Below are positions 23,899 to 44,559 of a stretch of 64,000 nt of DNA, in pieces. How positions within the stretch are numbered: the stretch's first letter is position 1; the number at the start of each line of letters is the position of its first letter. The notes beneath the pieces are model-generated. The model was not told the DNA's origin and did not search any database. It saw only the letters and a program-made list of their open reading frames with translations. Source of the DNA: Ignavibacteriota bacterium. GTDB lineage: Bacteria; Bacteroidota; Ignavibacteria; UBA10030; UBA6906. The stretch covers positions 8,257-72,256 of the forward strand of contig CAWEHG010000009.1 in the NCBI GenBank assembly GCA_963808715.1, read 5' to 3'. A program made the position numbers and the translations under genes.

Positions 23899-24836
23899 TC
23901 ATATGCCGTATGTCGTGGTTGCCGGATCGGCCGGGCCGGCCTGGTCAATGGCCGCGCACAGCGCTGCGTAGTCCCCGATGGACTCTCCGAGTGCCGCGGG
24001 GACCACCTGGCAGGCCGCGAAGGCCTCCGGCAGCGCCTCGGCGCGCATCACCTCGACAGCCGGACCGACGAGGGCGTCCGCGATGCGCATTCCCAGGCCG
24101 CCGAGGATGATCTTCTCCGGATTCAGCAGATCCAGCAGCATCGCCAGCCCGCGTCCGAAAGCCCGGGAGGCGCGGTCGAATACCGCGCGCGCCTGCGGAT
24201 CGCCGCTTTTCCACGAAGAGTAGATCCCGGAGGCGCCACCGGTCCATCGCCCGGGGAACATCATCTCTCCCAGCAACGCGATGCCGGTGCCGCTGCAGAA
24301 CCCTTCGAGGGATCCGGCCTTTCCGAAGCACGGGGGGCCCTCTTCGGCGACTCGCACGTGGCCGATCTCACCCGCCACATCGCTGGTTCCCCGGTAGAGC
24401 TGCCCGTTCAGGATCAGTCCCGCCCCGAATCCCGTTCCCATGGTCAGGAAGATGATGTTCCTGTATCCCCGGCCGGCGCCGAAGTGGAACTCCGCGAGCG
24501 CGCCCGCGTTCCCGTCGTGCTCCACGTACACGGGAAGGCGGAACCGCTCGAAGAGCATCGTCTTCAGCGGGATCGAATCCCAGCCGGGGAGGTTCGGGGG
24601 GACTTGACGATCCCCTGCAGAACGTCGAGCGGGCCGCCGATCGAGACGCTGATCGCCGCAGCAGTCCCCCGGGTGCGTTCCCGCGCTGCTTCGATCGCGG
24701 AGCACAATTCGTCGAACATCGCCGCGAAACCACGGCGGGGTTCGGTCGGGAATTGCCGCTTCCAGGTGATCGTCCCCGCTGTGCTCCCAAGGACCACCGC
24801 CGTCTTCGTCCCGCCGATGTCGCAACCGATGATCAT
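23899..24836 (-). CDS. ROK family sugar kinase, one homopolymer frameshift
   Basis: MIIGCDIGGTKTAVV (ORF 24564..24836) continues as ..PNLPGWDSIPLK..VEHDGNAGALAE..GEIGHVRV in ORF 23899..25011. The join lies in the G run at 24596-24601 (KSPPNLPGW needs one more C on the coding strand). Confidence 0.75.
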
Positions 24837-24863
24837 ATGAAAAGGATCGCCGCGGCCCGTTTC

Positions 24864-25998
24864 TCAGGAAGCAAGCAGGCGCTTCACGATCTCCGATGCC
24901 TGATGGAGTTGAACGAGGTCCAGATATCTCGCTCGGCCGTATGGGCCTGCGCGATATCCCCCGGGCCGAAGACGACGGTGGGGATCCCGTGTCGGTTGTA
25001 GATCCCCGCATCGGTCGCGTACGGTGCGGTCTCGACGACCACGGTCCCGGTCACCTCCCGGATCGCCTTCTCGAGAAGGCCGACCACGGGAGCCGTTTCG
25101 GGAACGTCCATCCCGGGGACATCCAGGTACGGTTCCTCCATCCGGATGCCGGGGAGGTCGTCCAGCAATGACCTGGCCGCCCCCAGGACCTCGGCGGTCG
25201 TCTCGCCTGGCAGCGTTCGCCGGTCCACGTCGATGTGGCAGCGGTCAGGGACGATATTCACCGCCTGCCCCCCATCGATCACACCAACGCTCAACGAGCC
25301 GGTCCCCAGTGCCTCGTGCGCAGGAGAGGTCTTCAGCATTGAGGCGTACTGTTCGAGGCGTACCAGCGCTGGCGCCATCCGGTGGATGGCGTTCGTCTCC
25401 CCGCTCAGGGTATGCGGAGTGGGCGGCCCTTCCCTCCGAGTGGATCTTCCACCGGGTGACCCCTTTGTGCGCCCTCACGATCCGCAGCCGGGTGGGTTCC
25501 CCCGCGATACCGAAGTCCGCGCACAATCCCCTGGCGGCCGCCTCCCGGGCGCCGGTGAACAGGAACTCCTCGTCGGCCACCGCCGCGAACACGATGTTGT
25601 AGCGGAGCGCCGCCGGCCGGCGCGCGGCTTCGCCGACCGCGAACAGGAACGCGGCGAGCGACCCCTTGGTGTCACACGCCCCCCGGCCGTACAGACGTCC
25701 TTCCTTCAACGTCGGGATGAATGTCCCGACCTCCATGCCCTCGGCAGGTACAGTATCGAGATGCGCCTCCAGGAGGACGGTGGCGGACGCTCCGGCATGG
25801 AACCGCCCGACCGACGTTGGGCGTCCGGGGCGACCTCCTGCCGTTCGACGTCTGCTCCAAGTGCGCCGAGCGCCCGGGCCACGTAGTCCGCCACCGCCGC
25901 CTCTCCATAGGCTGCCCCCGTGCGGCCGCGCTGCGCCCCATGGGGTTTATACTGGGGATGGCCAGCAGATCCGCGAGCAGAGAGACGAGGGGGTCCAT
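24864..25998 (-). pseudogene. M20 family metallo-deacylase (ArgE/DapE-like), four frame breaks as sequenced
   Basis: ATG 25998 (MDPLVSLLADLLAIPSINP). HLDTVPAEG, GRGACDTKG, AVADEEF, then the C-terminal half in ORF 24884..25378. Breaks near 25900, 25800, 25385 and 24945. True tail ..RYLDLVQLHQASEIVKRLLAS with TGA at 24864-24866. Confidence 0.7.
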
Positions 25999-25999
25999 G

Positions 26000-26900
26000 T
26001 CACGACTTCCGAACCGGGTTCCGGAGTTCCCCGATCTTCTCGATCCGGCAGACCACCTCATCCCCGGGAAGAATCGGACCGATCCCTTCAGGGGTCCCGG
26101 TGGAAACCACATCCCCCGGCTCGAGGGTGATCCTCTGCGAGATGTACGCCAGCACCCGGGGAACCGGGAAGACCAGGTGTTTCGTGCTGGAGCGCTGCCG
26201 GAGCTTCCCGTTGACGCGACATTCGATCTGCAGGCGTCCCGGATCCTTGATCTCGTCTGCGGTCACCATCCACGGTCCCATCGGCCCGAACGTGTCGAAA
26301 CTCTTCGAGCGGAACCAGGGCTCTTGCTTCGCGAGATCCGCAGCCTGCATCTCCCTCGCGGTCACGTCGTTCAGTACGGTATATCCCGCAACGTACTACA
26401 GCGCCTCGTCCGGCCGGATCCCCTTCGCCGTCCTTCCGATGACGACCGCCAGTTCCACTTCATGGTCCACCCTCCCGACGTCCGTCGGAAACACGGATCG
26501 GCTCGTCGGGCCCGATGACCGACGATCCCGCCTTCGCAAAGAGGATCGGGCTCGTGGGGGCACCGGTGCGTTCGCCTCCTTCGCATGAAGGGCGTAGTTC
26601 CGTCCGAGGGCCACGATTTTCTCCGCGGGCGCGCGAGTGGGGCCTTCATGCGTGCCTCTTTCGGTACCCGGTATAGTTTTTCCAGCCGGTTGCCGCGCAC
26701 GAACCGGTCCACCGCCGCGAGCTCTTCCAGGTCGAACTCCTCGTGTTCCAGCAGATCCGTGATCGTCCAGGCCGGATCCGTGTGAATATTGTGGACCTGG
26801 AGGTAGAAGACCGCAGCGGCCTTGGTGTAGTTGATCCACGAAGCTGCGGAACGGACCCAATCAGGGGATTTCCGTCATGTTCGAACTGGGCGACCTTCAT
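26000..26900 (-). pseudogene. Fumarylacetoacetate hydrolase (FAH) family protein, four frame breaks plus an in-frame TAG
   Basis: MKVAQFEHDGNPLIGSV at 26900. KIVALGRNYALHAKE, PILFAKAGSSVIGPDEPI, VDHEVELAVVIG, then EAL-TAG-YVAGYTVLNDVTAREMQ (TAG 26396-26398 in frame). C-terminal ORF 26000..26365 is intact. Breaks near 26848, 26625, 26550 and 26485. Confidence 0.7.
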
Positions 26901-29592
26901 GGCATCATCCTCACGAGCAGTGTGACGATCTCATTGGGGTTCATGGTCACGGCGACCTCTCGTGTCTCCCGGACCTCGATCGGTTCGACCGGAGTCTCGG
27001 TCAAGCCGCGCGCGCCAGGCCTGGCGGAGAGCGCCGGCGAACCGGAGGACCGCCGCTTCCGGTCCCTTCGACGGGTTGTAGTATGGTATTAGCTCATCGC
27101 CTCCGGCCTCCGATTCCTTCAGTGCGCTGAAGACGATCCGCGGGTTGTCAAGGGAACAGAAGCTGCCGCGCAGCGGGGGCAGGTCCGCGTTCTTCCTGCG
27201 GACCGCCAGGAGCGGAAGGTGGAAGGCTTCGCTCGGCCTGGTTGATGGCGGAGAGGTTTCCCTCCCAGGGGCCGTCCAGCGGCATCAGCCCGTAGCGGAA
27301 CGTGTGGACCCCCGCACACTGGGCATCGGGCGTCTCGTTGTGCCAGCCGGCCTTTCCTCCCGGACGGGTGATCAGGTCCTCACCCGCCAGCAGCCCCACA
27401 CACCGGAGGAGCGTTACGGCGATCGACCGCGGGCGATCGAGCCGCAGCTCGTATTCCGGCAGTCCGTCGGTGAGCACGAGCAGCCCGCGCTTCCCGTCCG
27501 CGGCCGCGACGAAACGCTGCATCGGAGCCACTGCCGCAGGGTGCTCGATCGTGAACTGTTTCACCGGATAGGTGCGTTGTTCCCGTTCCACGACGCAGAA
27601 TTGCGAGTCGGCGAAAACGCTGTTCCTATGCGTGCCGGTCGGGAACAGGACCCGCAACCGGTGGTCCTTCGCCCTGTTGTCCACGGTCGTGACGATCTCC
27701 AGCATGTCGGCATCGTGCGCGAGGTACAGGTCGCTGGAGATCCGGACCGGAACGGTCCTGGCCGACCTCGCCTTGCGGTCCGGGGTGGCCGACGCGGGGA
27801 TCCGCATCGTTGTTGTCACCCGCAGGCAGGCCCGGAGCGGCCCGCGTTCGACCAGCGACACTTTCGCGGTCCGCGACCGGACGACCCTGTCGCGGCGCGG
27901 GTATGAGTAGTTGTATTCGTCCCCCACATCGCCCGAATCCTCGAACACGTTGAGTCCCGGGAACCGCCGACCGCGCCGTTTATCCACCAGGGTCACTTCG
28001 CCCCTGGCGTTCACCTCCACGCGCAGCGATGCGTTCTCCAGGAACCGCGCTCCGGTCCGCAATGCCGTGGCGTGCCGGGGGAATCCGCTGCGCCGCTCGA
28101 TCGAGAACCCCGGCGACCCCCATCGCCGGCATGGTCATGGCATGTCGATCAGGACCGGTGCCCCGCTCGGCATAACTTCTGGCGCGGATAGTTGTAGCTG
28201 GGTGTAAGAGATGTCGTATTCCTGCTTTCGTTGGAGCGCGTCTGGAAGGTGAACCTCCTTCCCCACGGGCATCCTTCAGGACGAATCCCTCGGCGGCGCT
28301 GGCAGTTTCCGGATCAAGCACGACGTCGGGATTCAGCCCCACGACCATATCCTGTAGCTAGAACCGGACATCCGCTTCCACCACTCCGAACGCCGGAACG
28401 GGGACGGGTTGAAGACCAGCAATGCCCTGTCGCTCCCGACGGCGTCAGATCATCCGCCTGTACTCTCGCTTCCAGCCCGCATTCCGTGACCGACTCCCGA
28501 TTTCGCCGCTCGCGCCCAAAAGCGGACCATCATTTCCCGGTGAACCGGGTCGATGCTGCATCCGCAGATACTGTCGTGCGGATGGTTCTGCATCAGGGTC
28601 CTCCATCCGTGCTGCACGAGCGGTAGCCGCGAACCCCTCCCTGTGCCACTGTCCATCGCGTTCAGGGGTTCGGCGTAGCGCTCGAACAGCTTCTGGCTGC
28701 CAGTTCGCCTGCTTGATGTACATCCGGCTGGAATAGACTCCCGCCGAGCACCGCAAACGCGTACCGGTAGCCGAACCGGAGTTCCCCCTCCATCTCCGGA
28801 AGAGCGCCGAGCCCTTTTCGGACCGCATCCGTGTAGCCCTGCACCGTGCTGTGGTCGAAAACCCCGTCGAACGACCCCGGATCATCTCCAGGGTGGCGGG
28901 GAGTTTCGGGTCGGGCCAGTGGTGATCGCCGCCGTTCATCATCAGCCGGTGCGAGTCGCTCGCACGAGCGGTCGAGTTCATTCTTCAGCTGCCGCGAAGC
29001 GCCCCCGCACTTGTTCGGGGGAGTCCTGGTGGAAGTAGCCCGCGCTGTAGCCGTGGCGGAACAGGTGCGCCATCAGGGCACCCCTGCCGTCGGGGGCGAT
29101 CCACCAGTATTCGGAAGAGGTCTGCCCGGGTTCCCCGCCAAAGCCCCGATACACCAGGGCGCGTCCATGCCGAACCCGCTCGAGAATCGCCGGCATCATC
29201 GCAATGTGGCCGAAAGAATCGGGGATATAGCCGATGTTCATGCCCGCCGCCTAATCCCGGGCCCCGGGGCCCCAGCCTATCCCCAGGTTCCGGACCGTGG
29301 CCTCGGCGCTCACGAGGAATTCGTCCGGCAGACGTACCAGGGACCTACGACACCCTGCCCGAACGAGATCAGCCGTCGCAGCTACTCTCCTTTTTTCGGG
29401 ACGCACCGCAAATAATCGTCCAGGACGCAGCGTCTGGCCGTCCAGGGTGAAACGGCGGAACGCGGGGTCGCGTTCCGGAACAGTCAGCAGATCGTCGACC
29501 ATCCCCACCAGCATGCTGCGGAACTGTTCGAAGGTCTTGGACCATTCCCGGTCCCAGTGGGAATGCGACACGATATGATAGGTCGGGGTCAT
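26897..29592 (-). pseudogene. GH38 alpha-mannosidase / mannosylglycerate-hydrolase-like protein, at least ten frame breaks plus an in-frame TAG
   Basis: MTPTYHIVSHSHWDREW at 29592. GYIPDSFGH. HRLMMNGGDHHWPDP. NHPHDSICGCS. The C-terminal domain is in ORF 27148..28062. True tail ..TETPVEPIEVRETREVAVTMNPNEIVTLLVRMMP ends at TGA 26897-26899, overlapping ATG 26900. In-frame TAG at 29251-29253. The GPWYV motif near 29331-29360 is readable only in a locally shifted frame. Confidence 0.7.
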
Positions 29593-30576
29593 CGGATCTG
29601 GCCTCGTCCGGCTCTGTTTCTGATCTGCGGATATCTAAGAAGCGGCGGATCGCCGTGGAGGCACCATCGCGGCGACCCAGCTAGCAGCCACGGCGTTACC
29701 GAATTGTGCCGCATCGAACGGGTCGGCCCCCCGGATCTCCCGCGAGGAACCCCGCGATGTACGCGTCGCCCGCCCCCGTCGCATCGACGACCTTCCCACG
29801 TGCCTTGCGGGGCTGTACGCCGACCGTCCGGCGTGGTCCACGAAACACCCTCATTACCGAGTTTCACCCCCACAACGCCTGCCCCCCGCCTTGCAGCATT
29901 CAAGGCAACCATCTGTCCGCGGGTCTCCCCTCCCGTCATCGCCTCCCCCTCCCCGTAGCTCGGGATGAAATAGTCCACGCGCGGCAGGAGCGAGCAGTAG
30001 CGCGGGGGTTCGCGGCGAGGAACCCCGCCCGTATCGAGAAGGATCCGCAATCCCGCGTCCTTTCCTGATCGCGGCGAACGCCGCCGGGATCTCCGGCTCG
30101 CACTCCGGCAGCAGCCCCAGGTAGCCGAACGCGAAGTACGAAGAGCGCCGCAGACGATCATCGCCAAGGTGAGGCGAGCAGGTCTTTCGCCCGGAAGTTC
30201 TCCATGCAACCCCGCGTGAACAGGAACGTCCGTTCCCCGTCCCGTCCACCACTACGAATCGTGGCGGAGGTCTGGCCGGAGGCGTCCACGATCACGCCCG
30301 AGGTGTCGATACCATGTTCCAGCGAACGGCCGGCGTGACGAATCCTGCCGAGGCGTCGTCTCCCGACGCGGGTGACCACCCCCACGCCACCCAGCTTCGC
30401 AAGATCGATGCCGCATTGGCATGTTCCCCCCCGTCGTCAGTGGCGATGGTATCGATCGGCTGCATTCCACCCGCGCCGCGGGGGGCTGTTTCAGTTCGAC
30501 GGGCCGGCCGAGCATATCCACAGCGACAATCCCGCAACGACCACATCTACCGAGCCGGGATCCCTGTTGTTGCCAT
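29589..30576 (-). pseudogene. PfkB/ribokinase-like carbohydrate kinase, heavily frame-broken; boundaries approximate
   Basis: Fragments spread over three frames: VDVVVAGL, IVAVDMLGRPV, LGGVGVVTRVGDDASAGF, EHGIDTSGVIVDASGQTSATI, ERTFLFTRG, DYFIPSYGEGEAMTG, KVVDATGAGDAYIAGFLAG, FGNAVAAS. ATG 30576 is the candidate start. One frame ends in a TGA overlapping ATG 29592. Confidence 0.5.
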
Positions 30577-30579
30577 GCG

Positions 30580-32389
30580 TCACGCTCCGTGATCGTGAGC
30601 TTCTGAAATCGAGGATCCGGCGTCGGCTTTCCATGGCGTATCTCGAGCTTCTCGCTTCCCGTGGCCGCCTTCAGGAACGGGCCATCGAACAGCGGCGTGG
30701 CGCTGAGGTCGACCGCTTGCCGTTCAACGATTCGCCTGTCGGGAAACGCGAATGCCAGGGTGCCGTTCCCCAGCGACGCATACCTGACGGAAACCGCTCC
30801 GGGTTTCAGAACGCGCGAGGGCTTCCGGGTGCGCAGGGCGCCGCAGAAGCGGTCGAACGATCCCGCCTCCTCCCGCGACCGCACCTCGATGACGTACCCG
30901 TTCTGCAGGTGCCGGCTTCGCAACCGCCAGTTCCCGCTTCCTTGCTCCGGGGAAGGTCCTTCGGCCAGCCGACGGGGTCTTCTCCTGCCCCGGAGTGTCC
31001 TGCTCCTCCATCCACTCCCCCGCCGGCCAGGGGATACCAACCGACGTACGTGTCGCCCGCCTTGCAGAGGATCCAACCCGACGGATCGACGATACGCTCC
31101 TCGAGATTCCTCGGGAAGAACCCGTCGATATGTTCGGTCATGGTCCCGCCGGGGATGTCGTACAACACGAGCAGGGTGTTCTTCACCTGGAACGTCCGTT
31201 CGAACGGTGAGCCACCGGTCCATTTGTCCGGGTTGTTGTAGGTGCTCTTCGATGCGGTCACGTCCGCGATGAGCGGCTTGAGCTCCTCGGGGAAGAACAT
31301 CCCCAGCTCCCAGCTGGACCAGTATGGATGCAGCCCGAAGATCGTGGTGTAGGGCCGTCCGTAGAGGTAGCGGACGCTCCACGTATGTTGCTGGATCGGC
31401 TGCAGGATCCCTCCCTGGAGGGAACCGATCCCGTAATCCTTCGTCACATAGGTGTACTTGTAGACGGGAGGGTTCTTTTCGGAGCCGAACCGGATCACGT
31501 TGCGCACCCGTTTCCGCTCCCGGTGCACGAGGGGCCGAACGATCGAGGGCGATATCCAGAACGATCGCGGGGGACGATAATCGCTCAACGCGGGAGCAAG
31601 ACCCAGCCGCTTTGCGTGGGCTCTCCCGAACCGAAATAGAGATAGGCGAACGCCGAGGCACCCGAGAGGAGGGGTTTGAACACCGCGGGCTGGTAGATGC
31701 GGCTGAAGCCCCCGAGGTACTGACCGTCGAGGTGTTCCGCCCCGAAGTCGGCGAGGAGGTAGTCCATCATCATCGTCCCGCGCTTCTTCATCTCCGGATC
31801 GCGGGCGAACTGCGAGAGGAGCACCATCGAGATCGCGTATTCCGGAAAATAGTCGGGAGAATCGAACTCTCCCTGGCCGATCGTGGTCGTCACCTGCACC
31901 CAGTGGATGAGGTACTCGCGGGCGTCACGGAGGTTCTCGTCGGAGCTTTTGCCGTTGAACCATTCGCTCCCCGGCAGGCCGGGCCACTGTTCCGCTGCGA
32001 GGAATAGCGTGGCATAGTACATGGCCCAGTGGTTTTCCGTGTCGCCCCTGTACGGGGCGTAGGTCTTCCAGGCGTTGCGCACGGCGGCAGCCGTCGCGGC
32101 GGACATCTTCCCCTGTCCGTGCAGGAAGGTCCCATGACCGGGAACATCCAGAACATGTCCCGCGGGGTTCGCGCAGCAGGCCGACGAACATCGTGTCGGC
32201 TTCGGCGATGCGGACATCGTGCGCGTACCTGGCCGCCACCGTGTAAAAGCTCGGCGCCATGGCCGTGTCATACGCGGCCGCAATGTAGGCGGCCCTTACG
32301 GGATATTCCTGCAGGACGCGCTGCGGATCTTGGGAAAGAACCGTTCCCGCCGCGAGGAACGAGACGAGGAGGATCAGTGATGCCTTCAT
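30580..32389 (-). pseudogene. Secreted protein of unknown family (family P, copy 1), at least five frame breaks
   Basis: ATG 32389 (MKASLILLVSFLAAGTVLSQ). Paralogue of 34446-36222: RGDTENHWAMYYATLFLAAEQWPG, GQGEFDSPDYF, KRVRNVIRFG, GSLQGGILQPIQQHTW, FFPRNLEERIVDPSGW. Pieces lie in ORFs 31925..32539, 31585..32283, 30806..31588, 30724..31011 and 30252..31661. The end is inferred at TGA 30580-30582 by homology with copy 2 (..SER-stop). Confidence 0.55.
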
Positions 32390-32432
32390 GAACGACCTGT
32401 CAGACGGTAAGTGAAACTGTGCAGTGAGCTGT

Positions 32433-33428
32433 TCAGTGGATCTCGATATGCCAGACCTGGGCTCCGGCCTTGCCGACGTGGCGCCAGGTTTCCCCGGCGT
32501 CGTCGGTCCGGAAGATCCCGCCGCCGTGGGATGCCGCATACACGCGCCGGCTGTTGCGGGGATCGACCGCGAGCGAATGGAAGGTCAGATCGGTCAGCCC
32601 CAGGTTCACGCGTTTCCAGCGCCTCCCTCCATCCACCGACCGGTAGACTCCCGTGACATAGCCGGCGGCGTACACGGTGTCCGGTGCACCCGGGGCGAAC
32701 GCCACGGCATAGAAGGTCGTGTGGTCGACCCCGGCCTCCGATTTTTCCCACCAATCGCCGCCGTTGCGCGAGACGTAGATCCCGTTCTCCTCCGTGGCGG
32801 CGATGAGGACCCGCGGGTCGGACGGATGTTGCGCGATGGCCCGGACGCCGCGGACATGGAGGGCCATGCGCTCCCACGTGACCCCGCGGTCAAGGCTCCT
32901 GAACGCTCCGTCCTCGGCGGCACTGTACAGCCGGTCGGGAATCGCGGACATCCACCCGGACGCAGGAGGTGAATCCGCCCGCTCCGCCGGCGCTGAGATC
33001 CCGCCACGTGGCGCACCCGTCGCTCGTCCCGAAGACCCCGTACGGCGTGGCCGCATACACTACGTTCGGGTCACGAGGGTCGGGTTCCACCCAGAGGACC
33101 TCCGTCATTTTCCAGGTGGTGGTGATCCGCCAGCTCTTCCCGTTGTCGGTGGATCGGTGCACCCCATTCCGGCCGCGATATACAGGGCGGGTCCCGACTC
33201 CCCCGGCCCGAGGGCACAGCCGAACGCGCGGATGTTCTGCGGTCCCGTATGATCCCAGACCGTATCGGCGGATGGGTGCTGGAAGAAGATGCCGGTCTGC
33301 GGGTTGGGCGCCCCCACCACGAACAACTTTGTGGCGACGACCGATACGTAGACCGTGGACTCCTGGGCTGCCGCCGTACCGGCGGCGCCGATCAGGACCA
33401 CTGCAGCGATGAAGCGGTAGAGGCTCAT
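32433..33428 (-). CDS. Asp-box (BNR) beta-propeller protein 1, Sec signal, two frameshifts
   Basis: ATG 33428 overlaps the upstream TGA. MSLYRFIAAVVLIGAAGTAAAQ. STDNGKSW, TSDGCATW, SLDRGVTW, SVDGGRRW, TDDAGETW. Pieces in ORFs 33105..33740, 32890..33462 and 32433..33056, with breaks near 33175 and 32950. Confidence 0.6.
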
Positions 33429-34449
33429 GGGTAGTATTCGATCTGTTTGACGATCGCGCCACGGAGCCCGGCGAACTTCCACCGCACCCCGTGATCCGTG
33501 GATTCGTACACGCCGGAGGCGTGGGTCCCGATCACCAGATGGTTCCTGTCCGCGGGATCGATGGAGATCGCCGTGATGGCCTCGCACTCCACCGTGAACG
33601 GCACCCGCGTCCAGCGTTCCCCCCTGTCGATGCTCCGCCACAACCCGGTGCCGTATCCCCCCGCATACACCTCGCTCGCATCCGCGGAGAATCGTATCGC
33701 ATAGACGGGGTCCCGCCCGAGATCGTGGACGGGGTCCCATGTCCGACCCCCATCAGTGCTCCTCCGCACCCCATCCTCTTCCGATCCGAGGAGCATCGTA
33801 CGAGGATCAAGGGGATCCTGGGCGAAGGCGACCGGGAGCGAGACGCCGCTCCGGAGGGGAACCCACGTCTCCGCGCCGTCAGTCGACCGGTAGACGTCAT
33901 CCTCCACCAGCGCGTAGAGCGTCTTCCGGTCCGCCGGATCGAGGAGCAGACGCTGCACATACCACTTCGCGAAGCCTGCGTTCCGCTGCACCCAGGTTTC
34001 TCCGCCGTCCGTGCTCCTGAAGACGCCGAACGGCGTCGCTGCGAAGATCCTCCTCGAATCGCCCGGATCCGGCACGACGGCCAGGATCTCCTCGGTCCTC
34101 CATCCCGTGAGCACCTTCCAGGTCAGGCCGAGGTCCGTCGAGCGGTGCACCCCGTTGCCGCCCGCAAGGTAGAGCAGCCCATGCGGGCCGTGTGCAGTGT
34201 AGCCGAGGCCGAAACAGATGGCATTCGACCGGTTCAGCTTCGTCCAGGCCGTGTCGTGGCCGTCGCGGACGAACCCGCCGTAGGTCCCGCGGTTGCTTCC
34301 CGCGACGGAACCGCGGACCAGGAAGACCGCCGCATACATTCGCGGGCCTTCGGCCGCGTCTCCGGGCCCGCCCCGAAGACGAACGGGGAGGAGAACAGGA
34401 GCAGAAGAACCGCACCGGTGATCCTGTCTCCGAGCCGACTGTCCATCAT
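33425..34449 (-). CDS. Asp-box (BNR) beta-propeller protein 2, one frameshift in the leader region
   Basis: Track ORF 33425..34339 (STDLGLTW, STDGGETW, STDGAETW, STDGGRTW, SIDRGERW, STDHGVRW). A signal-like N-terminus MMDSRLGDRITGAVLLLLFSSPFVFGAG starts at ATG 34449 (overlapping the family-P copy 2 stop) and joins near 34365. Alternative start ATG 34339 gives no signal peptide. Confidence 0.7.
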
Positions 34450-36222
34450 CGCTCCGACACCACCCCCCTGGCGAAGTCGAGCACCCGGGTCCTTCCCCTC
34501 GCGGTCAGCGTGATGATCCCGGTCCCGATCTCTCCGTTCACGAACGGTCCATGGTACAGGCCATACCCTGCGAACGAGTGGGGTTTCCCGTCCAGGGTCC
34601 GTGTCCCATCCCATCGAAACTCCATCACCTTGCCGTCGGCCGTCACGAACCTGACGGAAGGGGTTTTGGTCCCCATGGCCACTCGCGGGGTTCGCTTCCT
34701 GAGAGAGGCCTGGAATTCGGCGCCACCCCTCCGATCCGCCGGCCGCCTCGACCACGAATCCGCTGCGGCCCGACGGCGTCCGGAGCCGGAAGTTCACCGC
34801 CTCTTCGATCCAGTTCCCCGCGACGGTCGGGTAGAGCCCCACCATCGTCTTTCCCGACCGGCAGAAGATCCACCCGGAAGGATCGACGATCCGTTCGTCC
34901 AGATTCTTCGGGAAGAACCCGTCAGTGTGCTGCTGTACGGTCCCCGGAGGGATATCATAGAGCACGATCAGCGAACCTCTGTGCTGGTAGACCTGCTCGT
35001 AGGGAGACGAGGAGTTCCACTTGTCCGGACTCGTATAGACCTTGTGATACCGGTCGACCTCTCCGGCAAGGAACTGCTGCTCTTCCGGGAAGAACATGGC
35101 CAGCTCACGGCCGGACGCGAACGGATGCAGGGTAAAGATCGTGTTGTTCGGTTTCGGCGAGAGAAACGTGACGTCCCACGTGTGTTGCTGGATGGGCTGC
35201 AGAATGCCTCCCTGCAGCGAACCGATGACGAAATCCGGTGTCATGTACGCGTACTTGTAGACGGGCGGATTCCGGACCTCGCCGAACCGTATGACATTGC
35301 GGACCCGTTTGGTTTCCGTATGCACATAGGGTTTCGAGCGGTCGGTCGCGATGGCATAGACCACCGGGGGGACCCGATAGGTCGAGAGGGCGCCGAGCGC
35401 CGCTTCCCACGACCCCCGGTGGCGCGGCCGGTACCGGAGTTCAGACCACGGTTCGAACCGGGGTTCGCCGAAAAAGAGCCACGCCCACATCGTCGCCGGC
35501 GCGGAGAGGGGGTTGATCATGTCGTCGGGGTAGTCCCGGCTGTGTCCTCCTCCGTAGTTCCCACCCAGATGTTCCGCCCCGAAATCGGCCAGCAGCAGAT
35601 CGACCATCATGCCGGCGCGCCGTTTCATCTCCGGATCCGTGGCGAACTCCTGCAGGACGAGCATCGGGCCAAGGAATACCGTGAAGTAGGTGGGCGAGTC
35701 GAATTCCCCCTGCCCGCGCGTGGTCGTGATCTTCATCCATTCGCGCAACCACTCCGCCCCGTCGCGGAAATTCTCTTCCGAGCTCCGCCCGTTGAACCAT
35801 CGGTCACCGGGCTCACCGGGCCAGGTCTGCGCGGCGAGGTAGAGCCCGGTATGGTACATCACCCAGTGGTTCTCCGTATCGCCCCGGTACATCGTGCGGA
35901 CGCGGAACGCCTCGCGGATCTTCCGGTGAAGAGAATCGGGCAGAACCGCTCGGCAGTGGAGATAGGTGCCGATCAGCTCGTAGGCGTAGAACATCCCGCC
36001 GATCGCCTTGTCGCGCGTCAGCGAATCGATCATCGCGTAGGCCACCGGAAGTTCGCGCCCGAGGCGGATGCGCGCCGCCGCGGTGAAGAAACTCGTGTCC
36101 GGTTCCGACGCCGCCACCTCCAGAAGCCGTCGGGCGCGGGTCTCGTAGGCGGAGTCCTGCGCTTCAGGCGCCGCAACTCCGCCGGACAGCAGGACGATAC
36201 ACATCGTGAGGAACGCGATCAT
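34446..36222 (-). CDS. Secreted protein of unknown family (family P, copy 2), one homopolymer frameshift
   Basis: ATG 36222 (MIAFLTMCIVLLSGGVAAPEAQ). About 500 aa are continuous in ORF 34234..36348. The tail (VAMGTKTPSVRFVTADGKVMEFRWDG..VLDFARGVVSER) is in ORF 34446..34682. The join lies in the C4 run 34726-34729 (..EAAGGSEGGAEFQASLRKRTPRV..). Confidence 0.65.
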
Positions 36223-36259
36223 ACTCCTCCACAGTGACAGATGCCAGGAACGAAACGTT

Positions 36260-37261
36260 TCACGGTTGGCGGTGCGCCCCGGAGGAAAGAGAGAGGCCCC
36301 AGACCTGTGCGTCCTCCTGGCTGGACCAGATCCAGCTCTTCCCTCCATCCTCGCTCCTGAAGAGCCCCCCGTTCAGGGTTCCCGCGTAGACCACGCCCGG
36401 GTGCTGCCGGCTGACCACCAGCGCGTGGACGTCGCGGTTCGTCAGTCCCTCCGTACGCTGCTTCCAGCTCTTCCCCCCGTCGTCCGACCTGTAGACCCCT
36501 CCGCCATGGGTCCCGACGAAGATCACGCCCGCCAGGTCGACGGCGATCGCATAGACGGTATGGTGCTCGAGTCCGGAGGACGACCGGGTCCAGGACCTTC
36601 CGGCGTCCCTGGAGACCAGGACGCCGTGCTCCTCGGTCCCCGCGAGGAACACCTTCGGGAGCAGTGGATGCTGCACCAGAACCCGGATGCCACTCTCTCG
36701 GGCTCCGGCAAGACTCCATGATCCGCCGCCATCGACGGATCTGTATATCCCGTGTTCCGATGCCGCCAGGACGTGATTCCCGTTCGACCGGTCCACGCAA
36801 ACGTCGCTGACGAATCCGCCGGCGATGCTCTTCCCCACCTGCTGCCAGGTGACCCCGAGATCGGTCGAGCGCACTACCCCGTAGGCGCTGGCGCCGAAGA
36901 CACGCGAGGGGTGAGTCGGGTCGGTCTTCACCTTCAGCACCTCCGTCACCCGCCAGTCCGTGGTGACCCTCCATGTGGCTCCGCGGTCCGTCGACCGGAG
37001 GATCCCGTTTCCGCATGCCGACCAGAGCGTTCCGTCGGTCCCGGCCTCCGAGTAGAACACCCGTATGTATTCCCGCCAGCCCCGGTGGTTCCAGGTGGCT
37101 CCGCCGTCGGTGGACACGAACAGTCCCACCACGGGATTCTCCGTGCTTCCCAGCCGGTGCTTTCGGGAATTGAGGATCGACATGTAGAGCGTATCGACCT
37201 GCGCGGCTGCCAGCAGCGGCTGCACGAGAACCGCCATCGCCAGCATCCACCTCCGGAACAT
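36260..37261 (-). CDS. Asp-box (BNR) beta-propeller protein 3, Sec signal, intact
   Basis: ATG 37261 (MFRRWMLAMAVLVQPLLAAAQ) inside track ORF 36260..37345. STDGGATW, STDRGATW, STDLGVTW, SVDGGGSW, SRDAGRSW, SDDGGKSW, SEDGGKSW. Confidence 0.8.
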   Translation of the reverse strand: MFRRWMLAMAVLVQPLLAAAQVDTLYMSILNSRKHRLGSTENPVVGLFVSTDGGATWNHRGWREYIRVFYSEAGTDGTLWSACGNGILRSTDRGATWRVTTDWRVTEVLKVKTDPTHPSRVFGASAYGVVRSTDLGVTWQQVGKSIAGGFVSDVCVDRSNGNHVLAASEHGIYRSVDGGGSWSLAGARESGIRVLVQHPLLPKVFLAGTEEHGVLVSRDAGRSWTRSSSGLEHHTVYAIAVDLAGVIFVGTHGGGVYRSDDGGKSWKQRTEGLTNRDVHALVVSRQHPGVVYAGTLNGGLFRSEDGGKSWIWSSQEDAQVWGLSLSSGAHRQP

Positions 37262-37277: not shown

Positions 37278-39651
37278 CTACTTGATCGCAACGGGAATCC
37301 CTCCTTGTAGCTGCTCGCGGCCGAATGAGCCGACCATCGTACCATTCACGCGGACGTCATACGCTCCGGGATCCACGCCCCTGAATCTGAGCATGATCGA
37401 GCGCGGGGTCGCAACATTGTCCGCGAGCATGACCGACACGCTGCGTCCTTCCGCCCGGACTTCCGTGATCCGGCACCCGTCAATCCCCACTCCCCACGCC
37501 CCCGCCACGTCGACGAGCGCGTCACCGTATCGTGCCCGGAGCATTCCCAGCGAGACCGCCGAGCTGCCGGTCCCCCAGTGGATCCCGGTCACACCGCCCA
37601 ACCGGTCAATTGCGCTGTGAGCGTAGTTCTCGCCGGTGCGCGGCGACTCCGCAGATTCGAACAGGGAGAACATCGCCCTGGCTGCGGCCACCGAACGTTC
37701 CAGGTATTCGCGTTCCCCGGTGAGTTCAAAATAGTCCGAGAGCGTCATCGCGAAATATCCCTGCCGGGCGTCGCTCCATTCTCCGTCGGTGTTCTGCACG
37801 CCGAAACCGCCGAACAGCGCCCGGGAGAGCCACGCCGGACTCCAGACCTGCTGATAGAGGAGCAGGTAGTCGAGAATGGCTGTGCCGAGATCACGGTACA
37901 ACCTTTCGCCCGTCACCCGCGCCAGAAGTGCGCATGCAGCCGCGGCCTGGTCCATCACGAGGGTGTTCTGTGCGTACTGTCGGGTGAAGGGATCATGGAA
38001 GCCCGGTGCCTTGCGCGAACAGGAAAAGAACGTCTCAAAATCGAACCATTTCCGCTGCGGGATCACCTCCGCACGCAGATACCCCACGGCACGTTCGGCG
38101 GCCTCCAGGATCGCCGGCTCGCGAGACCGTTCGTACCAGGCCGCCAGGAAAAGGGCTGCACCGGCCACCTCCGCGCTGCCGGTCCTGAACGTGTCCGCCG
38201 GCTGCAACGTCCCCGGCTCGAACCACGAAGGGAAGCCACCCCCGGCGGACTGGCGGCTCAGGAGGAACCGCGCAAAAGCCCCGCATCTCGAGTGGATCCT
38301 CTCCCGTTGCTCCGGGACGAGGTCCGCCCACTGAAGGAGCCAGTAGTTGTTCCAGGCGTTGTTGAAGGTTGAATAGCACCGCCCATCGCGGATCCCTCCC
38401 CAGCCCTGGTCACCGACCCAGTGGCCACCCGTGCTGTCGATATAGAAGATCGACGGACCGATCCCCTGCTCCTGCGGGGCCGCCAGCGCGAGGTTCAGCA
38501 CCCGCACCGCACGGGCGGTCTTCGTGCTGTCGCCCGTCCCGGCACCATACCGGTACCATCCGTACGCCGTTCGCAGTGCGTTGAACCAGACGGTGAACCA
38601 GCAGTCATTGTTCGCCGAGAGAGGGAGTTCATTGCTCCAGCTCAGCCGGCCCTGCCGCAACAGGGTCACCGGGATCCCGTCGAGCACCGTATCCAGTGCT
38701 ACCTGTGCCGCATAGTCGGTCCACGCCTTCCGCTCGAACTCACGGAAGGGGACCCGCTGCGGTCCCCCGTCTCCGAGGAAGTTCTTCCTTCCGGTGCGAT
38801 CCCAATGGAACCGGACCACCGGGCGGTATCCCTCACCTGCGGTGGCCTGACAGTCGACAAAGACGTAGTACCCGTACCAGAACCGGCTTTTGTAGAACTG
38901 CGTCGTCATCTTGTCCGAGTGCGTATAGAACACATGGGACCGTTGACGCCAGTTCATCGCTCCATACGACACCATCGGCCCGGGTTCGGCTCCCACCTGC
39001 AGATCAGCGCAGGTCTGGATGCTCCTCCATGGAACGATCCGTTCGACCGCGGGAACGAGCGCCGCCACGACCGTTCCCCGCTGGATGATCACGGCAGGCG
39101 ACCGGAAGGTGTGGTCGGCGATCACGTCGTCCGGATCGGGCCGCAGCTGGGGGGTCCAGGTCAGGTCCGGCCGGACCTTCCGTTTCCCGTCGGGGACGAA
39201 CGAACAGGTCGAGAGGAGCGAACTGACCTCCGAGAGCCCCTCCACCGCGTCATAGATCTCGACCCGGACGAAGGGGTCACCCTGTTCCATGGTGACCGTC
39301 TTGGTCACCCGGTGAACCCCGGCGCTCCCCTGCAGCCGCACGGAGATGCGTGTCCCGGTCGTTTCCGCCACGCTGATGGATGGTGAGGCGGATCGCGGTC
39401 GCGCGGCCGTCCGCCTTCAACGTCAGGTCTGCCCGTTTCTTCGAACCGGCCTCCAGGACCAGCCGCCAGCGGTCGCCCAGAGACCAGTAGGTCTCCGCAT
39501 ACCCATTCGGTCCGCGGGCGAAGCGGACACGGACGGCCTCATTCTCCAGGATCCACACCCCCCCGCTTTCGCGGCGGAGCGTCACGCCGGCGGCCGCCGT
39601 GTGGAACGCCGCCGCCAGCAGGAACATGACCGGAAGGATCGCCCACCTCAT
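37278..39651 (-). CDS. Secreted ~790-aa protein of unknown function (beta-sandwich N-terminus + six-hairpin-like body?), one frameshift
   Basis: MRWAILPVMFLLAAAFHTAAAG at 39651 (ORF 39277..39651) joins ORF 37278..39371 near 39370 (..ATAIRLTIH/SVAETTGTRISVRLQ..). The remaining 697 aa are intact. Trp/Gly-rich blocks GGHWVGDQGWGGIRDG, FNNAWNNYWLLQW, GGGFPSWFEPG. No family recognised. Confidence 0.6.
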
Positions 39652-41308: not shown

Positions 41309-42557
41309 TCACCACCACGCAGGAGTGAACGAAGCGCCTTCTTTGACCTCGGCCGCCACCGCCCGGCGCAGGGCGCGGCCGGCCTTGTCGATGACTTCGT
41401 CGATGATCGGCCGGGGTGTGCGAATACGAGATGAACCAGCGGGGATTGCCGAAGATCCCTTCGACATAGAGCTCCCTCTGCCAGAGGAACTCCAGCCGCG
41501 CGTGGTACCCCGGATCCTTGTGGATGAACTTCAGGAACGGCGCCACGGGAAGGCCGGCAGGGACCGCCTCCACACCGATGTCGTGGGCGATGACCCGGAA
41601 CCCCTCCATCAGGCGGAGTCCCATGGCCCGGAGATGTTCGTGGACCGGCTCGCGCCGCATGATCTTGAGGGTCGCGATCGCCGCGGCGATCGACAGCGCC
41701 TCGCCGGCGTAGGTCGTCGTCATCTTGAAGTCGTACAGTTTCTCCATGTACTTCTTCCGCCCGACGTAGGAGGACAGGGGGAACCCGTTGGCGATGGCCT
41801 TGGCATACCCCGCAAGGTCGGCCTCCACACCGAAGAACTCCTGCGCCCCGCCCGGTGCGAGCCGGAAACCGGTCAGGATCTCATCCATGACCAGGAGGAT
41901 GCCCTGGTCGGCCGTGGCCTTCCGCAGGAAACGGATGTAGTCGCCGCTCGTGTCCTCGTTGAAGTCGTAGGGAGTCGATATCACGCAGGCCAGCCGGTCT
42001 GCGTACGTCCGGATCAGTCGGTCCGCCGTCTCGCAGTCGCCCCAGGGGATGATCTTGACGTACTCCTTCATGAACGACGGTACGCCGTTATTCGGGCTGT
42101 CCTCGGTCTGGAACCAGTCGGGATAGCCGTGGTAGCCGCTCATCAGGATCATGTCGCGCTTCATGTACGCGCGCGCGATCCGGATATTGGAGAGGTTCGC
42201 GTCCTCGCCGGTCTTCATGAACCGGACCATCTCGGCGTTGGGGACCATGGCGTGGACAAGCTCCGCGAGCTCGAGCTCGATGGGGCTCGCCATGCTGAAC
42301 AGGACCCCGCGGGAGAGCTGCTCGCGCACGGCCTCGTCGACCTCGTCATAGCAGTAGCCGAGCGTCACCGGCCCCAGCGCGAGGCGGAAGTCGATGTACT
42401 CCTTCCCTTCCATGTCCCACAGCTTGCACCCCTTCCCGCGCACAATGTATTTGGGCATCGCGGGCGCGAAGGCAGGGTAGGGACGCTTGGCGTTCGTCTG
42501 CGTACCCCAGGGGATCAGGCGAAGGGCCCGTTCGAAGTGCTCGTCGGATGGTCTCAC
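41309..42557 (-). CDS. Class III aminotransferase (glutamate-1-semialdehyde aminomutase-like), one frameshift near 3' end
   Basis: GTG 42557 (GGAGGTGA upstream) overlaps the heparinase-2 stop (GTGA). TQTNAKRP, FMKTGEDAN, LVMDEILTGFRL, GYAKAIANGFP. The tail ..HTPADIDEVIDKAGRALRRAVAAEVKEGASFTPAWW-TGA (41309-41311) requires removing one base near 41405. Confidence 0.8.
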
Positions 42558-44559
42558 AGGGTCACCTCCGGGATATCGGTGGTCACGCCGATCCGCGCGC
42601 GGATCGTGCGGCCGCGGTGCGTGCCGGAGAGTCTCCAGCCCTGTTCCTCCCGCGCGGCCACGATGATCCCGTGGTTCTCGCCCGCCGGGGCGGCGGTGCA
42701 GACCGTCAGGAGGGTGTGATCCTTCGCCGCCGGGGAAAGGATCTCCACGAAGGGGTGCAGGCCGTATTTCTCGGGAAGTTCGAGTGTCGCGGCCCGTGCG
42801 GAGCATTCGCCGGAGGCCTGGCCCTGCAGGCTTGCTCCCGGCCGGACGATGCGGAACATGAAGGCCCCGGCGGTGGCCGTCCCCTTTCCGTCGGAGTTGT
42901 CGACCTGGAAGCGCAGCTGGACGGCATGGGCGTCTCCGCCGAAGCGGACGCGGTCGAGAACGACGAGGATGTCCGGCTTGATGAAGAGCAGCGTCCGCTG
43001 AACGAGCACGACATCGGGAAAGACCAGGCGGTAGGCCTCCGTGGCATCGCTCGTCACCACCATCCGCTCGTCGGACGCGACGTAGCGATCGACGTGGGCC
43101 TCCGCCCAGGAAGCGTTGGTCCCTTCGTGGCCGTCGTGATACTGGTGCCCTTTGCCATCGATCAGCAGGGCCGTGTGCGCGGCGGTCAGCCGGAGCAGCC
43201 AGTTGGGTTCCGTGTGAGAGTAGGCCGCCTTGTACGGATCGTGCAGGAGCCGCTCGCCGAAGGCGGCGAAGACGATGCTGTTCCGGTCGGCATGCTCGTG
43301 GTTTGCGGGACCGCCGCTGCGCAGGGCCAGGACCGATGCACCCGCATCCCAGCCCGTCCGGGAGACCACGACGTCGTTCACCAGCCGGACGTCCTGCAGC
43401 GCCGCCGGAGGCCGGGCCGGCTCCATCGAGGGATCGTACCAGATCGCCGCATAGTGATTGGCAATGGTCCCCACCGTCGTGGCCATATGCTGCGCGAGCC
43501 CGTCGCGGAAGTTGCGGGCCACCCACGCGGCCGCGGAGACGTCGCCCATCTGCCAGGCGTCCCCGAAGTTGACGCAGTCGTTGGGCCGGTCGTGCGTCGG
43601 CATCGACATCGCCATGCCGTACCGGACCGTCCCGGGGAAGTTGATGATCTTCCGTTCGTCGATCCCCAGCCGCCTGCGGATGACCTCGACGGCGAGCGTC
43701 AGATGCAGAACGGTGTAGCCCCAGTAACCGACCCCTTCGTCGTACGAGCCGTCGGACCCGAACATCGAGGAGAACGCGCGTGCGCTCTGGAGAGCCATGT
43801 TGATCCACGACTCCGCCTGCGGATGGCGGCCGTACAGGAGGCAGCCCGCCATGGCCAGCCCGGCGATGGGGATCACTTTGAGGTTGGTGGAATTCAGGAT
43901 CAACGGCCAGCGGCCAGGTCGAACCGGAACTGATAGTCGGTCTCCGGATCGATGGACCAGCCCCGGACCCGCTCGGGGTATTTCAGACCGTAGAGGGTGC
44001 GGTAGCATGCGGGCGCCCCCTTCTCGGCGATCTGCTTCTCCATCTCGGCCTTCAATGCCGGCGTCAGCCGGTCGTCCAGCCATTCGCGTGCGCTGACGAC
44101 CGCGATGGTGGCTTCGGGGGCGCGCTGGAGCCCGATGGTGGCTTCGCCCGCTTCGAGGAAGTAGTCCCATTTCTTGTAGGCAAGCATCCGCTCGAGCGCC
44201 AGCAATGCCAGGTCGGAGTGGACCGTGTCGCCCGTGACCGCATAGGCGAACGACTCACGTTCCAGGATCTGCCGTGCCCGGAGGAAATGGGCGACGTGGT
44301 TGTTCAGTTTCAGTTCGTTCGTCAGGAAGGTCCGGTCGGCCGCCTTGTCCGCCTCCACGAGGGTCTTCCAGAAGGGCTGAAAGCGGGGGAGCTTCAGGGT
44401 TTCCTTGATCCGCGGGAGGTCGGCCGCGTCCCAGAGCAAACCGGGAACCGCGGACGGTGCCGCCACTTGTGCGGCCGCCTCCTGGAACCGGGGAGCCAGG
44501 AGCAACCCGGCGGTGGTCAGACCGGTTCGCTGGAGGAACTCACGACGGGTGCTATTCAT
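42554..44559 (-). CDS. Heparinase II/III-like polysaccharide lyase family protein 2, Tat signal, one frameshift
   Basis: MNSTRREFLQRTGLTTAGLLLAP at 44559 (ORF 43900..44559) joins ORF 42554..44170 near 43908 (..YQFRFDLA/RWPLILNSTNL..). GGPANHEHADRNSIVF motif. Confidence 0.75.

Follow-up and report, generated by a model that had tools for sequence, protein, structure and literature searches.

The two copies of an unassigned exported protein family (here, P) and three exported Asp-box propellers (BNR) that are interleaved on one strand of the 64-kb window, the whole stretch of DNA analysed here, raise three questions: what do these proteins do, do they act together, and is the repeated arrangement recent or old? 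We address these through the integrity of the genes, the distribution and phylogeny of their relatives, the operon in which they lie, and the predicted folds of both protein types.

Gene order and frame breaks

Three-frame translation and base-level checks place the five genes on the minus strand in the order BNR3–P2–BNR2–BNR1–P1 (Table 1), as an earlier note on this DNA had read it, including the two ATGA overlaps that join the stop of P2 to the start of BNR2 (34449-34446) and the stop of BNR2 to the start of BNR1 (33428-33425). The signal peptide of BNR3 is MFRRWMLAMAVLVQPLLAAAQ. P1 and P2 are 47% identical overall, and all six motifs that they were said to share, among them RGDTENHW, GQGEFDSP, KRVRNVIRFG and NPPVYKY, occur once in each copy. 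The three propellers are 32-39% identical in pairwise comparison. The same note credited each with five to seven SxDxGxxW boxes, a count that holds for BNR3 (seven, all strict) and BNR2 (five) but is a little high for BNR1, which has three strict boxes and reaches five under relaxed matching.

Table 1. Genes of the BNR/P module and of the surrounding gene string, in window coordinates
Feature	Position	Strand	Remarks
BNR3 (333 aa, exported seven-bladed Asp-box propeller)	36260..37261	-	ATG 37261; 'upstream-of-first-P' lineage
P2 (exported, ~592 aa, lyase-fold family P)	34446..36222	-	ATG 36222, TGA 34448-34446; 'first P' lineage
BNR2 (341 aa, exported propeller)	33425..34449	-	ATG 34449, TGA 33427-33425; 'middle-1' lineage
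BNR1 (331 aa, exported propeller)	32433..33428	-	ATG 33428; 'middle-2' lineage
P1 (605 aa when intact, second lyase-fold paralogue)	30580..32389	-	ATG 32389, TGA 30582-30580; 'second P' lineage
Q (~760-800 aa; 697-aa body verified)	37278..39371	-	ORF; conserved upstream partner
Heparinase II/III-like lyase (PL35/PL15 relative)	42557..44559	-	head of gene string; frame break near 43922
PfkB sugar kinase	about 30553-29633	-	tblastn mapping; heavily frame-broken
GH38 alpha-mannosidase	29514-26900	-	tblastn mapping; heavily frame-broken

It is important to note that BNR3 is the only clean open reading frame among the five in this contig. P2 is broken once (near 34719-34721), BNR2 once (near 34351), BNR1 twice in a mutually compensating manner (near 33168 and 32935), and P1 at least four times, its 3' third falling within an error-rich stretch of the contig. 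These breaks could be genuine, the part of the operon that comprises P1, BNR1, BNR2, PfkB and GH38 being in the course of decay to pseudogenes in the organism itself; four of five module genes are affected, and positions 28000-31000 show 8-18% mismatches and many indels relative to both sister copies. We nevertheless consider decay very improbable. Each of the four broken module genes has an intact version in the same-bin contig C2 or the sister contig L010, which are near-identical assemblies: P2 on L010 (P0001, 98% identical), BNR2 in C2 (L015), BNR1 in both, and P1 in C2 (L015:7676-9670), which indicates that the genes are real and the breaks assembly noise. The GH38 gene is likewise intact in C2. 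The positions of the breaks differ between assemblies, single-base indels are spread over all genes (190 gaps in 19 kb relative to L010), and rpoB is fragmented too, in a 4.2-Mb bin with an estimated completeness of 61.8%. Moreover, the flanks are only 1-2% divergent from a sister copy, so that 15% mismatches and 5% indels would lie beyond the reach of neutral decay in place. We accordingly rejected gene decay in favour of assembly noise, and annotation of the broken frames in this window as pseudogenes is unwarranted.

Partnership, paralogue lineages and operon context

A BNR gene lies no more than 700 nt away on the same strand for 102 of 110 P genes, at 77 loci mostly in Ignavibacteriota/Bacteroidota MAGs, and the two kinds of gene occur together in related genomes. 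The two are also found fused as single BNR-P proteins, in 11 of 63 representatives as well as in P0030, P0040 and L079, with the signal peptide of P replaced by a short linker. Their phylogenies mirror each other: the 'first P' and 'upstream BNR' clades both contain 36 rows, made up in each case of 25+8+3. Adjacency, fusion and mirrored trees all support the two-component unit that had been proposed from the window itself. P1 belongs to a 'second P' clade of 26 rows and BNR2 to a 'middle-1' clade of 18 rows, both with support of 100. The 'middle-2' lineage of BNR1 groups with the single middle BNRs of four-gene operons, and its smallest well-supported clade also includes middle-1 rows.

On these trees the P and BNR paralogue clades are ancient and position-specific, and BNR2 is by its placement a third, extra propeller lineage. 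The earlier suggestion of a duplicated unit therefore stands insofar as there are two sets of P/BNR paralogues, with the refinement that the duplication is ancient and tied to position. Recent tandem duplication was rejected because the lineages of both P and BNR are old and their positions fixed across many genomes.

The module is embedded in a longer gene string whose order is IclR, AP_endonuc_2, GFO/IDH/MocA, heparinase-like lyase, class-III aminotransferase, tandem Amidohydro_2 and then Q, followed by BNR, P, BNR, BNR, P, PfkB, GH38 and FAH. The stop of Q is 16 nt ahead of the start of BNR3, and in about 35 loci Q immediately precedes BNR-P; Q has no match in Pfam or NCBIfam and none by profile among PDB sequences, with weak six-hairpin hints. 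The family profile of the heparinase-like protein matches 8khw (E 1.4e-20) and 3a0o (E 3e-19) in the PDB. The order P-PfkB-GH38 recurs in other loci, and orthologous loci also hold genes for a DeoC aldolase and an MR_MLE dehydratase. Around 'BNR-P only' loci there are SSF symporters, GFO/IDH/MocA, CotH and a heparinase-like gene, as well as a P with a fused CBM9; no decisive clue to substrate emerges from these. The five genes are best explained as the central part of an old and conserved catabolic operon in an uncultured bacterium of the Ignavibacteriota/Bacteroidota type.

Family P and its predicted fold

Family P comprises 1284 clusters at 50% identity and is widespread among Ignavibacteriota/Bacteroidota, KSB1/Zhuqueibacterota and Calditrichota MAGs of soils, sediments and groundwater. 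The earlier note could not name this family, and sequence searches likewise assign none. Pfam gave zero matches for P even at E<=1, assigned no family to fragments of P1, and left the P region of 63 divergent members without a family; NCBIfam gave 0 matches; and PDB searches with profiles of the close (A1) and divergent (A3) family returned nothing relevant. Signatures of Hepar_II_III_C and DUF4962 are absent from P, as are matches to Lyase_8 or alginate lyase models across Pfam, NCBIfam and PDB sequences, and hhalign gave a probability of 0.2% for the P profile against the operon's own heparinase-like protein and against a profile of 36 sequences from its family. By sequence or profile, then, P resembles no described lyase family in any of these searches. 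Neither the sequence nor the fold searches mapped P to a known non-glycan function, and the literature on PL35, Ignavibacteria, newly described PL families and the pairing of BNR with a lyase, where searched, yielded no paper on a P/BNR module. Divergent members carry additional CBM9, F5/8-type-C, CARDB, dockerin, cohesin, BACON, Laminin_G_3 or CHB_HEX_C domains, which suggests a role in glycan metabolism.

Predicted structure was more informative. The AF2 model of P is confident (pLDDT 87.3, pTM 0.88): a helical toroid occupies the N-terminal part, up to about residue 295, and the beta strands that follow form a C-terminal sandwich. In a Foldseek search of the PDB ranks 1-18 were all lyases (prob 0.69-1.00, with most of the first 13 at 1.00), from PL35 (8khw/8khv/9o3q), PL15 (3a0o/3afl), PL17 (4ok4/4ojz/4nei), PL8 (2wda/1rwa/6f2p/2brv/1hn0) and PL33 (8r6z), with global TM-scores of only ~0.4 and E-values of ~1e-5. 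The resemblance to the toroid-plus-sandwich build of polysaccharide lyases, first noticed from the letters, is thus borne out by the model, which has the two-domain arrangement of the PL8/12/15/17/21/33/35/39 lyases.

The best matches are PL35 enzymes, namely GAGase II/VII (8khv, 8khw) and the chondroitinase 9o3q, at prob 1.0, TM ~0.4 and E-values from 1e-5 to 2e-4. They have in common with P a length of ~580-620 aa, with an (alpha/alpha)6 toroid at the N terminus and an antiparallel beta-sandwich at the C terminus. They differ in sequence, at ~10% identity, and P has no match by HMM or profile; the operon's heparinase-like gene, by contrast, matches 8khw at 1.4e-20. To our knowledge, PL35 enzymes do not have a propeller partner such as that of P. 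The exo-type alginate/oligo-uronate lyases PL15 Atu3025 (3a0o/3afl) and PL17 Alg17c (4nei/4ok4), at fold ranks 2-7, have the two-domain architecture of P, but are 700-776 aa long with an extra N-terminal domain, and their sequence relationship to P is undetectable.

Conservation points to a candidate active site. Close relatives of P have a mean column identity of 62% and ~130 invariant columns, among them R113-G-D-T-E-N-H119, G170-Q-G-E-F-D-S-P-T-Y179, H227/R229 and G338-G-I-L-Q-P-I-Q-Q-H-T-W349. Among representatives of 25-57% identity, N118 and H119 are each conserved in 84%, Y179 in 90%, R229 in 92%, H347 in 68% and H366 in 78%; one divergent member in four has Arg or Gln at the position of H347. 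PL35 lyases have an Asn/Tyr/His catalytic set, and PL15 and PL17 an adjacent His/Asn neutraliser pair, a Tyr ~54-57 residues on and a His in the sandwich domain; across PL12/15/17/35/39 the spacings of the Asn(His)/Tyr/His triads are 53-57 and 130-166 (Table 4, PMC12088678). P has N118-H119 and Y179, with 61 residues from N to Y, longer than in PL15/PL17, and 168 from Y to H347. Asn118-His119, Tyr179 and His347 would thus be spaced roughly like a lyase catalytic triad, comparably to PL35, a correspondence of spacing. The many conserved basic residues of P (K305, R306, R308, R312, K323, K401 and R479) would suit an anionic ligand. Four acidic residues (E117, E173, D175 and E409) show 90-95% conservation in the divergent family, more than H347, and would fit a hydrolase or a metal site as well.

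The propellers and a proposed glycan-cleaving function

The AF2 model of BNR3 is a seven-bladed propeller (pLDDT 90) with an Asp box in every blade and a conserved polar residue, one per blade, at N85, Y127, E169, E210, H252 and N297. Its Pfam matches are Sortilin-Vps10 and BNR; BNR_2 (PF13088) scores 22.9 bits, under the cut-off of 31.4. PSII_BNR scores are 24-33 bits, around the cut-off of 27, and BNR3 has partial NCBIfam matches to 'F510_1955 family glycosylhydrolase' of 108-123 bits, below the cut-off of 175. The best Foldseek matches of BNR3 are Reut_B4987 (3b7f; TM 0.73), single GH74 domains, DAIP (5fzp/6fhp) and Ycf48 (5oj3/5ojr), with TM ~0.6 to the top propellers other than 3b7f; all are single seven-bladed propellers or half-domains of the same size as BNR3. 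In GH74 enzymes a single chain of ~700 aa contains two tandem seven-bladed propellers, which together form the catalytic cleft. The BNR proteins, at 331-341 aa, have one propeller each, and Foldseek places BNR3 on only one half of GH74 chains (target TM ~0.3). Sialidases have six blades where BNR3 has seven blades and seven Asp boxes, and none is among its top 50 fold matches. Of the possibilities raised earlier for the propellers (sialidase-like, GH74-like or non-catalytic binders), the first can be dropped, while the resemblance to a single GH74 domain or to Ycf48 stands. We know of no case in which 3b7f, GH74, DAIP or Ycf48 serves as the dedicated partner of a lyase-fold enzyme.

We hypothesize, leaning only slightly toward this over its negation, that P and BNR make up a two-part secreted glycan-cleaving enzyme in which P is catalytic and probably a lyase acting on an acidic glycan. 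Catalysis would fall to P, of a new sequence family in which an (alpha/alpha) toroid precedes an antiparallel beta-sandwich, and P would most likely cut a uronate-containing glycan by beta-elimination outside the cytoplasm. Asn118/His119 may neutralise the carboxylate, with Tyr179 and a His of the sandwich domain (His347 or His366) as acid and base. Each P would have a dedicated exported seven-bladed propeller, whose role would be to bind or position the substrate or to complete the cleft; the presumed pairs are BNR3/P2 and BNR1/P1, which would leave BNR2 as an additional propeller. SSF symporters might then import the products, with GH38, PfkB and sugar-acid enzymes completing their breakdown. 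The presence of a PL35/15-like lyase, PfkB, GH38, FAH and GFO/IDH/MocA in the same string supports such a pathway; counting against a lyase are that the operon already holds a recognisable one, and that the GH38 and aminotransferase neighbours indicate no specific uronan.

If P is a propeller-dependent lyase or other glycan-cleaving enzyme, its CAZy family and its enzyme architecture would both be new, and it would provide a function for a ~20-kb operon that is among the most conserved sugar islands of these uncultured heterotrophs. The family itself, with >1,200 clusters, is extremely conserved and yet missing from Pfam, NCBIfam and PDB sequences. It is tempting to go further and speculate, though we find it rather doubtful, that P and the propeller form an obligate heterodimer, fused to a single chain in some lineages, with the active cleft between the toroid/sandwich and the top face of the propeller, constituting a new CAZy family whose target glycan has no degrading enzyme known so far; the two paralogous pairs would then take successive steps or different linkages.

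P may instead use a lyase-like fold for other chemistry on an extracytoplasmic glycan, with the propeller, as a Glu/Asp glycoside hydrolase or a uronate C5-epimerase. We regard this as unlikely, if deserving of serious attention: E117, E173, D175 and E409 are better conserved than H347 in the divergent family, no profile links P to lyase families, dermatan-sulfate epimerase, of the same fold class, is among the PDB matches of the heparinase-like profile, and the adjacent GH38 alpha-mannosidase suggests neutral, mannose-containing substrates. However, the order of toroid then sandwich is that of lyases, as are all confident Foldseek matches, while GH63, GH92 and GH95 have TM-scores of <0.2; the conserved Asn-His...Tyr...His pattern has lyase-like spacing, the operon includes sugar-acid catabolic genes, and an exported bacterial epimerase would be unusual in a catabolic operon.

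In the reverse assignment the propellers would be the enzymes, GH74-like or akin to the propeller lyases of PL24/25/42, and P a non-catalytic binder or scaffold. The likeness of BNR3 to single GH74 propeller domains and to the putative BNR glycosyl hydrolase 3b7f, the partial glycosylhydrolase match in NCBIfam and the polar residue conserved in blade after blade would fit such a role. We think it improbable: GH74 activity needs two propellers per chain and BNR supplies one, the NCBIfam match is below its cut-off, and the non-catalytic Ycf48 and DAIP, both protein binders, match the fold equally well. A catalytic P is also in keeping with its far greater conservation (62% mean column identity) and with the fusions, in which the CBMs sit on P.

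The module and its operon

The contig holding the module belongs to a 4.19-Mb metagenome bin (44 contigs, 65% G+C). Module genes were called from three-frame translation of the minus strand with base-level checks, and their neighbours were placed by tblastn mapping (Table). The coding-strand order proposed in the earlier note (BNR3, P2, BNR2, BNR1, P1) is borne out, its ATGA start/stop overlaps are present exactly at 34449-34446 and 33428-33425, and all six motifs that it quoted as shared by the P proteins occur once in each copy. Its count of five to seven SxDxGxxW boxes per propeller holds for BNR3 (7) and BNR2 (5), but not for BNR1, which has three strict boxes and five under a relaxed pattern. 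All five products open with Sec-type leaders; P2 and P1 are 47% identical, and the propellers 32-39% identical pairwise.

Table. Genes of the module and flanking operon in window positions, with reading-frame state in the window contig (C9), a second contig of the same bin (C2) and a sister contig from another sample (L010)
Gene	Position	Strand	Placed by	C9	C2	L010
IclR	47279-46509	minus	tblastn
AP_endonuc_2	46467-45664	minus	tblastn
GFO/IDH/MocA	45615-44623	minus	tblastn
Heparinase II/III-like lyase	~44559-42557	minus	tblastn
Class-III aminotransferase	42557-41312	minus	tblastn
Tandem Amidohydro_2	41306-39680	minus	tblastn
Q (just before the module)	37278-39651	minus	tblastn
BNR3	37261-36260	minus	translation, base-level check	intact	broken	broken
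P2	36222-34446	minus	translation, base-level check	broken	broken	intact
BNR2	34449-33425	minus	translation, base-level check	broken	intact	broken
BNR1	33428-32433	minus	translation, base-level check	broken	intact	intact
P1	32389-30580	minus	translation, base-level check	broken	intact	broken
PfkB	~30553-29633	minus	tblastn
GH38	29514-26900	minus	tblastn	broken	intact	broken
FAH	26838-26009	minus	tblastn

The operon is a breakdown island for a sugar or sugar acid, although gene content does not single out the polymer; in orthologous loci, genes for DeoC aldolase, an MR_MLE dehydratase, SSF symporters and LarA are present as well. The heparinase II/III-like gene heads the operon string and has a second copy on contig C6; its family profile matches PL35 (8khw, E 1.4e-20) and PL15 (3a0o, E 3e-19), and the family consensus has a Tat-type leader (SRRxFL). 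The Amidohydro_2 protein (~540 aa) is about twice the usual domain length, with its Pfam match mainly in the second half (259-504), in keeping with a tandem barrel. Q (~760-800 aa), whose gene directly precedes BNR-P in about 35 loci, is a second family without assignment in this operon: it has no match in Pfam, NCBIfam or PDB sequences, and only weak six-hairpin hints (GlcNAc 2-epimerase, GH76, C5-epimerase) at E 1e-3 or worse.

The P-BNR partnership and its history

Scanning one genome per GTDB species gave 313 P-encoding stretches, from which 77 loci were kept, mainly from Ignavibacteriota/Bacteroidota MAGs, with others from KSB1/Zhuqueibacterota, Calditrichota and a few further groups. For 102 of 110 P genes, HMM annotation of these loci finds a same-strand BNR gene no more than 700 nt away, so that P and BNR do co-occur in related genomes, and at least one of the eight exceptions (in locus L079) is itself a BNR-P fusion. 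Such fusions account for 11 of 63 diverse P representatives and also occur in P0030 and P0040, in both of which a short linker takes the place of the P signal peptide. About 35 loci share the full string AT3, Amidohydro_2, Q, BNR, P, BNR, (BNR), P, PfkB, GH38, and the five-gene version seen in the window is found again elsewhere. The family is patchy: 11 of 41 relatives have it.

In the tree of P, the copies standing first (as P2) and second (as P1) in the operon form separate clades of 36 and 26 rows, both with support 100. The propeller tree has an upstream clade (as BNR3; 36 rows) whose locus-type composition matches that of the first P, as well as a clade of the first middle propeller (as BNR2; 18 rows, support 100) within a larger one that also takes in the second middle propeller (as BNR1) and single-middle BNRs (42 rows, support 99). 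These old, position-specific lineages show the module to be a BNR-P pair duplicated long ago, plus an extra propeller, and a recent duplication was rejected on the same grounds. Adjacency, fusions and matching clades together uphold the duplicated two-component unit suggested from the window. A third P paralogue in the bin (G000:C34:246773-248908), ~61% identical to P2, is split by a frame break and is adjoined by a short BNR3-like DNA match.

Family P and its propeller: predicted folds and function

A frame-corrected P2 query retrieved at least 1946 homologues, nearly all 586-625 aa long, with neither a name nor a Pfam domain, and an exhaustive HMMER search (E<=1e-3) resolved 1284 clusters at 50% identity. 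The earlier note could not name the family, and neither can we: there was no Pfam match even at E<=1, none in NCBIfam, none among PDB sequences with close or divergent profiles, and no publication in a literature search; nor did P map to a known non-glycan function. Conservation is nevertheless very strong (alignment columns of 60 sequences average 62% identity). AlphaFold2 was run on the intact P2 copy of L010, which is 98% identical; the model (pLDDT 87.3, pTM 0.88) consists of helical hairpins as far as residue ~295 and a beta-sandwich from there on, in agreement with the lyase-like build anticipated for the two halves. Foldseek ranks 1-18 against PDB are all polysaccharide lyases of helical-plus-sandwich build, from PL35 (GAGase VII/II and a chondroitinase), PL15 (Atu3025), PL17 (Alg17c), PL8 (chondroitin AC/ABC, hyaluronate and xanthan lyases) and PL33 (BT4410). 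Most of the first 13 have probability 1.00 and the others of these 18 have 0.69-0.99, at E 1e-5 to 4e-3, global TM ~0.2-0.4 and sequence identity ~10%. Profile-profile comparison found no relationship between P and the operon's own lyase-matching heparinase II/III-like family; P is therefore a sequence family of its own with a predicted lyase-like fold. Divergent members bear CBM9, F5/8-type-C, CARDB, dockerin, cohesin, BACON and similar modules, so that the family belongs with carbohydrate-active proteins that act outside the cell. In Zhuqueibacterota and 'Cytophagia' MAGs (L090:7992-12894, L098:7884-12804), P has a C-terminal CBM9, and the next gene encodes a CotH-family protein with lamin-tail and FlgD-Ig domains, to which L098 adds a Por secretion tail.

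BNR3 matches the Pfam models Sortilin-Vps10 and BNR, and its homologues number in the thousands, for the most part annotated as 'photosystem II stability/assembly factor-like'. The protein models as a propeller of seven blades (pLDDT 90), nearest to 3b7f, an uncharacterised BNR protein (TM 0.73), and then to single GH74 xyloglucanase halves, DAIP and Ycf48. Of the suggestion that the propellers could be sialidase- or GH74-like, only the fold likeness to single GH74 halves survives for BNR3: seven blades and a BNR_2 score under the cut-off rule out a sialidase, and a single propeller, where GH74 has two, rules out that enzyme. One conserved polar residue per blade recurs outside the Asp boxes (N85, Y127, E169, E210, H252, N297), which suggests to us a candidate ligand site on one face.

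The residues of P best kept among divergent members (25-57% identity) are E117-N118-H119, G170/E173/D175/S176/Y179, H227/R229, K323, W349, H366-P367, E409, Q413, Y422 and W451. In the published catalytic sets of PL12/15/17/35/39 (Table 4, PMC12088678), an Asn that often neighbours a His precedes a Tyr by 53-57 residues, and this Tyr precedes a His of the sandwich domain by 130-166; P has as candidate counterparts N118-H119, Y179 (+61) and H347 (+168), a spacing compatible with this pattern when read along the sequence. On balance we lean towards P being a new family of putative lyase-type glycan-cleaving enzymes that would work with a dedicated exported propeller. A hydrolase or epimerase on a lyase-like fold is a distinctly less probable reading, kept in play because the acidic residues of P are very conserved, and it is quite improbable that the propeller, rather than P, is the catalyst.

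Frame breaks and sister copies

BNR3 is the sole clean ORF of the five in the window contig; P2 and BNR2 have one frame break each, BNR1 two that compensate, and P1 at least four. The 14.2-kb contig C2 is 91% identical to window 24000-37099, and L010, from a long-read assembly, is 93% identical to the window locus. It is very improbable that the broken genes are true pseudogenes, given that P1, P2, BNR1, BNR2 and GH38 are each intact in one or other sister copy. Differences between copies are mainly scattered single-base indels (190 gaps in 19 kb between window and L010), and rpoB is fragmented in the source bin as well. Window 28000-31000 stands apart from both sisters (8-18% mismatches, many indels), which are far closer to each other there than to the window, while its flanks differ by 1-2% from one or other of them; this pattern fits poor polishing and is at odds with decay in place. 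Comparison of the three copies thus identifies the frame breaks as probable assembly noise. C2 also has a mosaic identity to the window, differing by 1-2% over 32000-37000 and by 10-16% over 24500-28000, and this, taken with the divergent 28000-31000 stretch, has the look of mixed strains combined with locally poor polishing.
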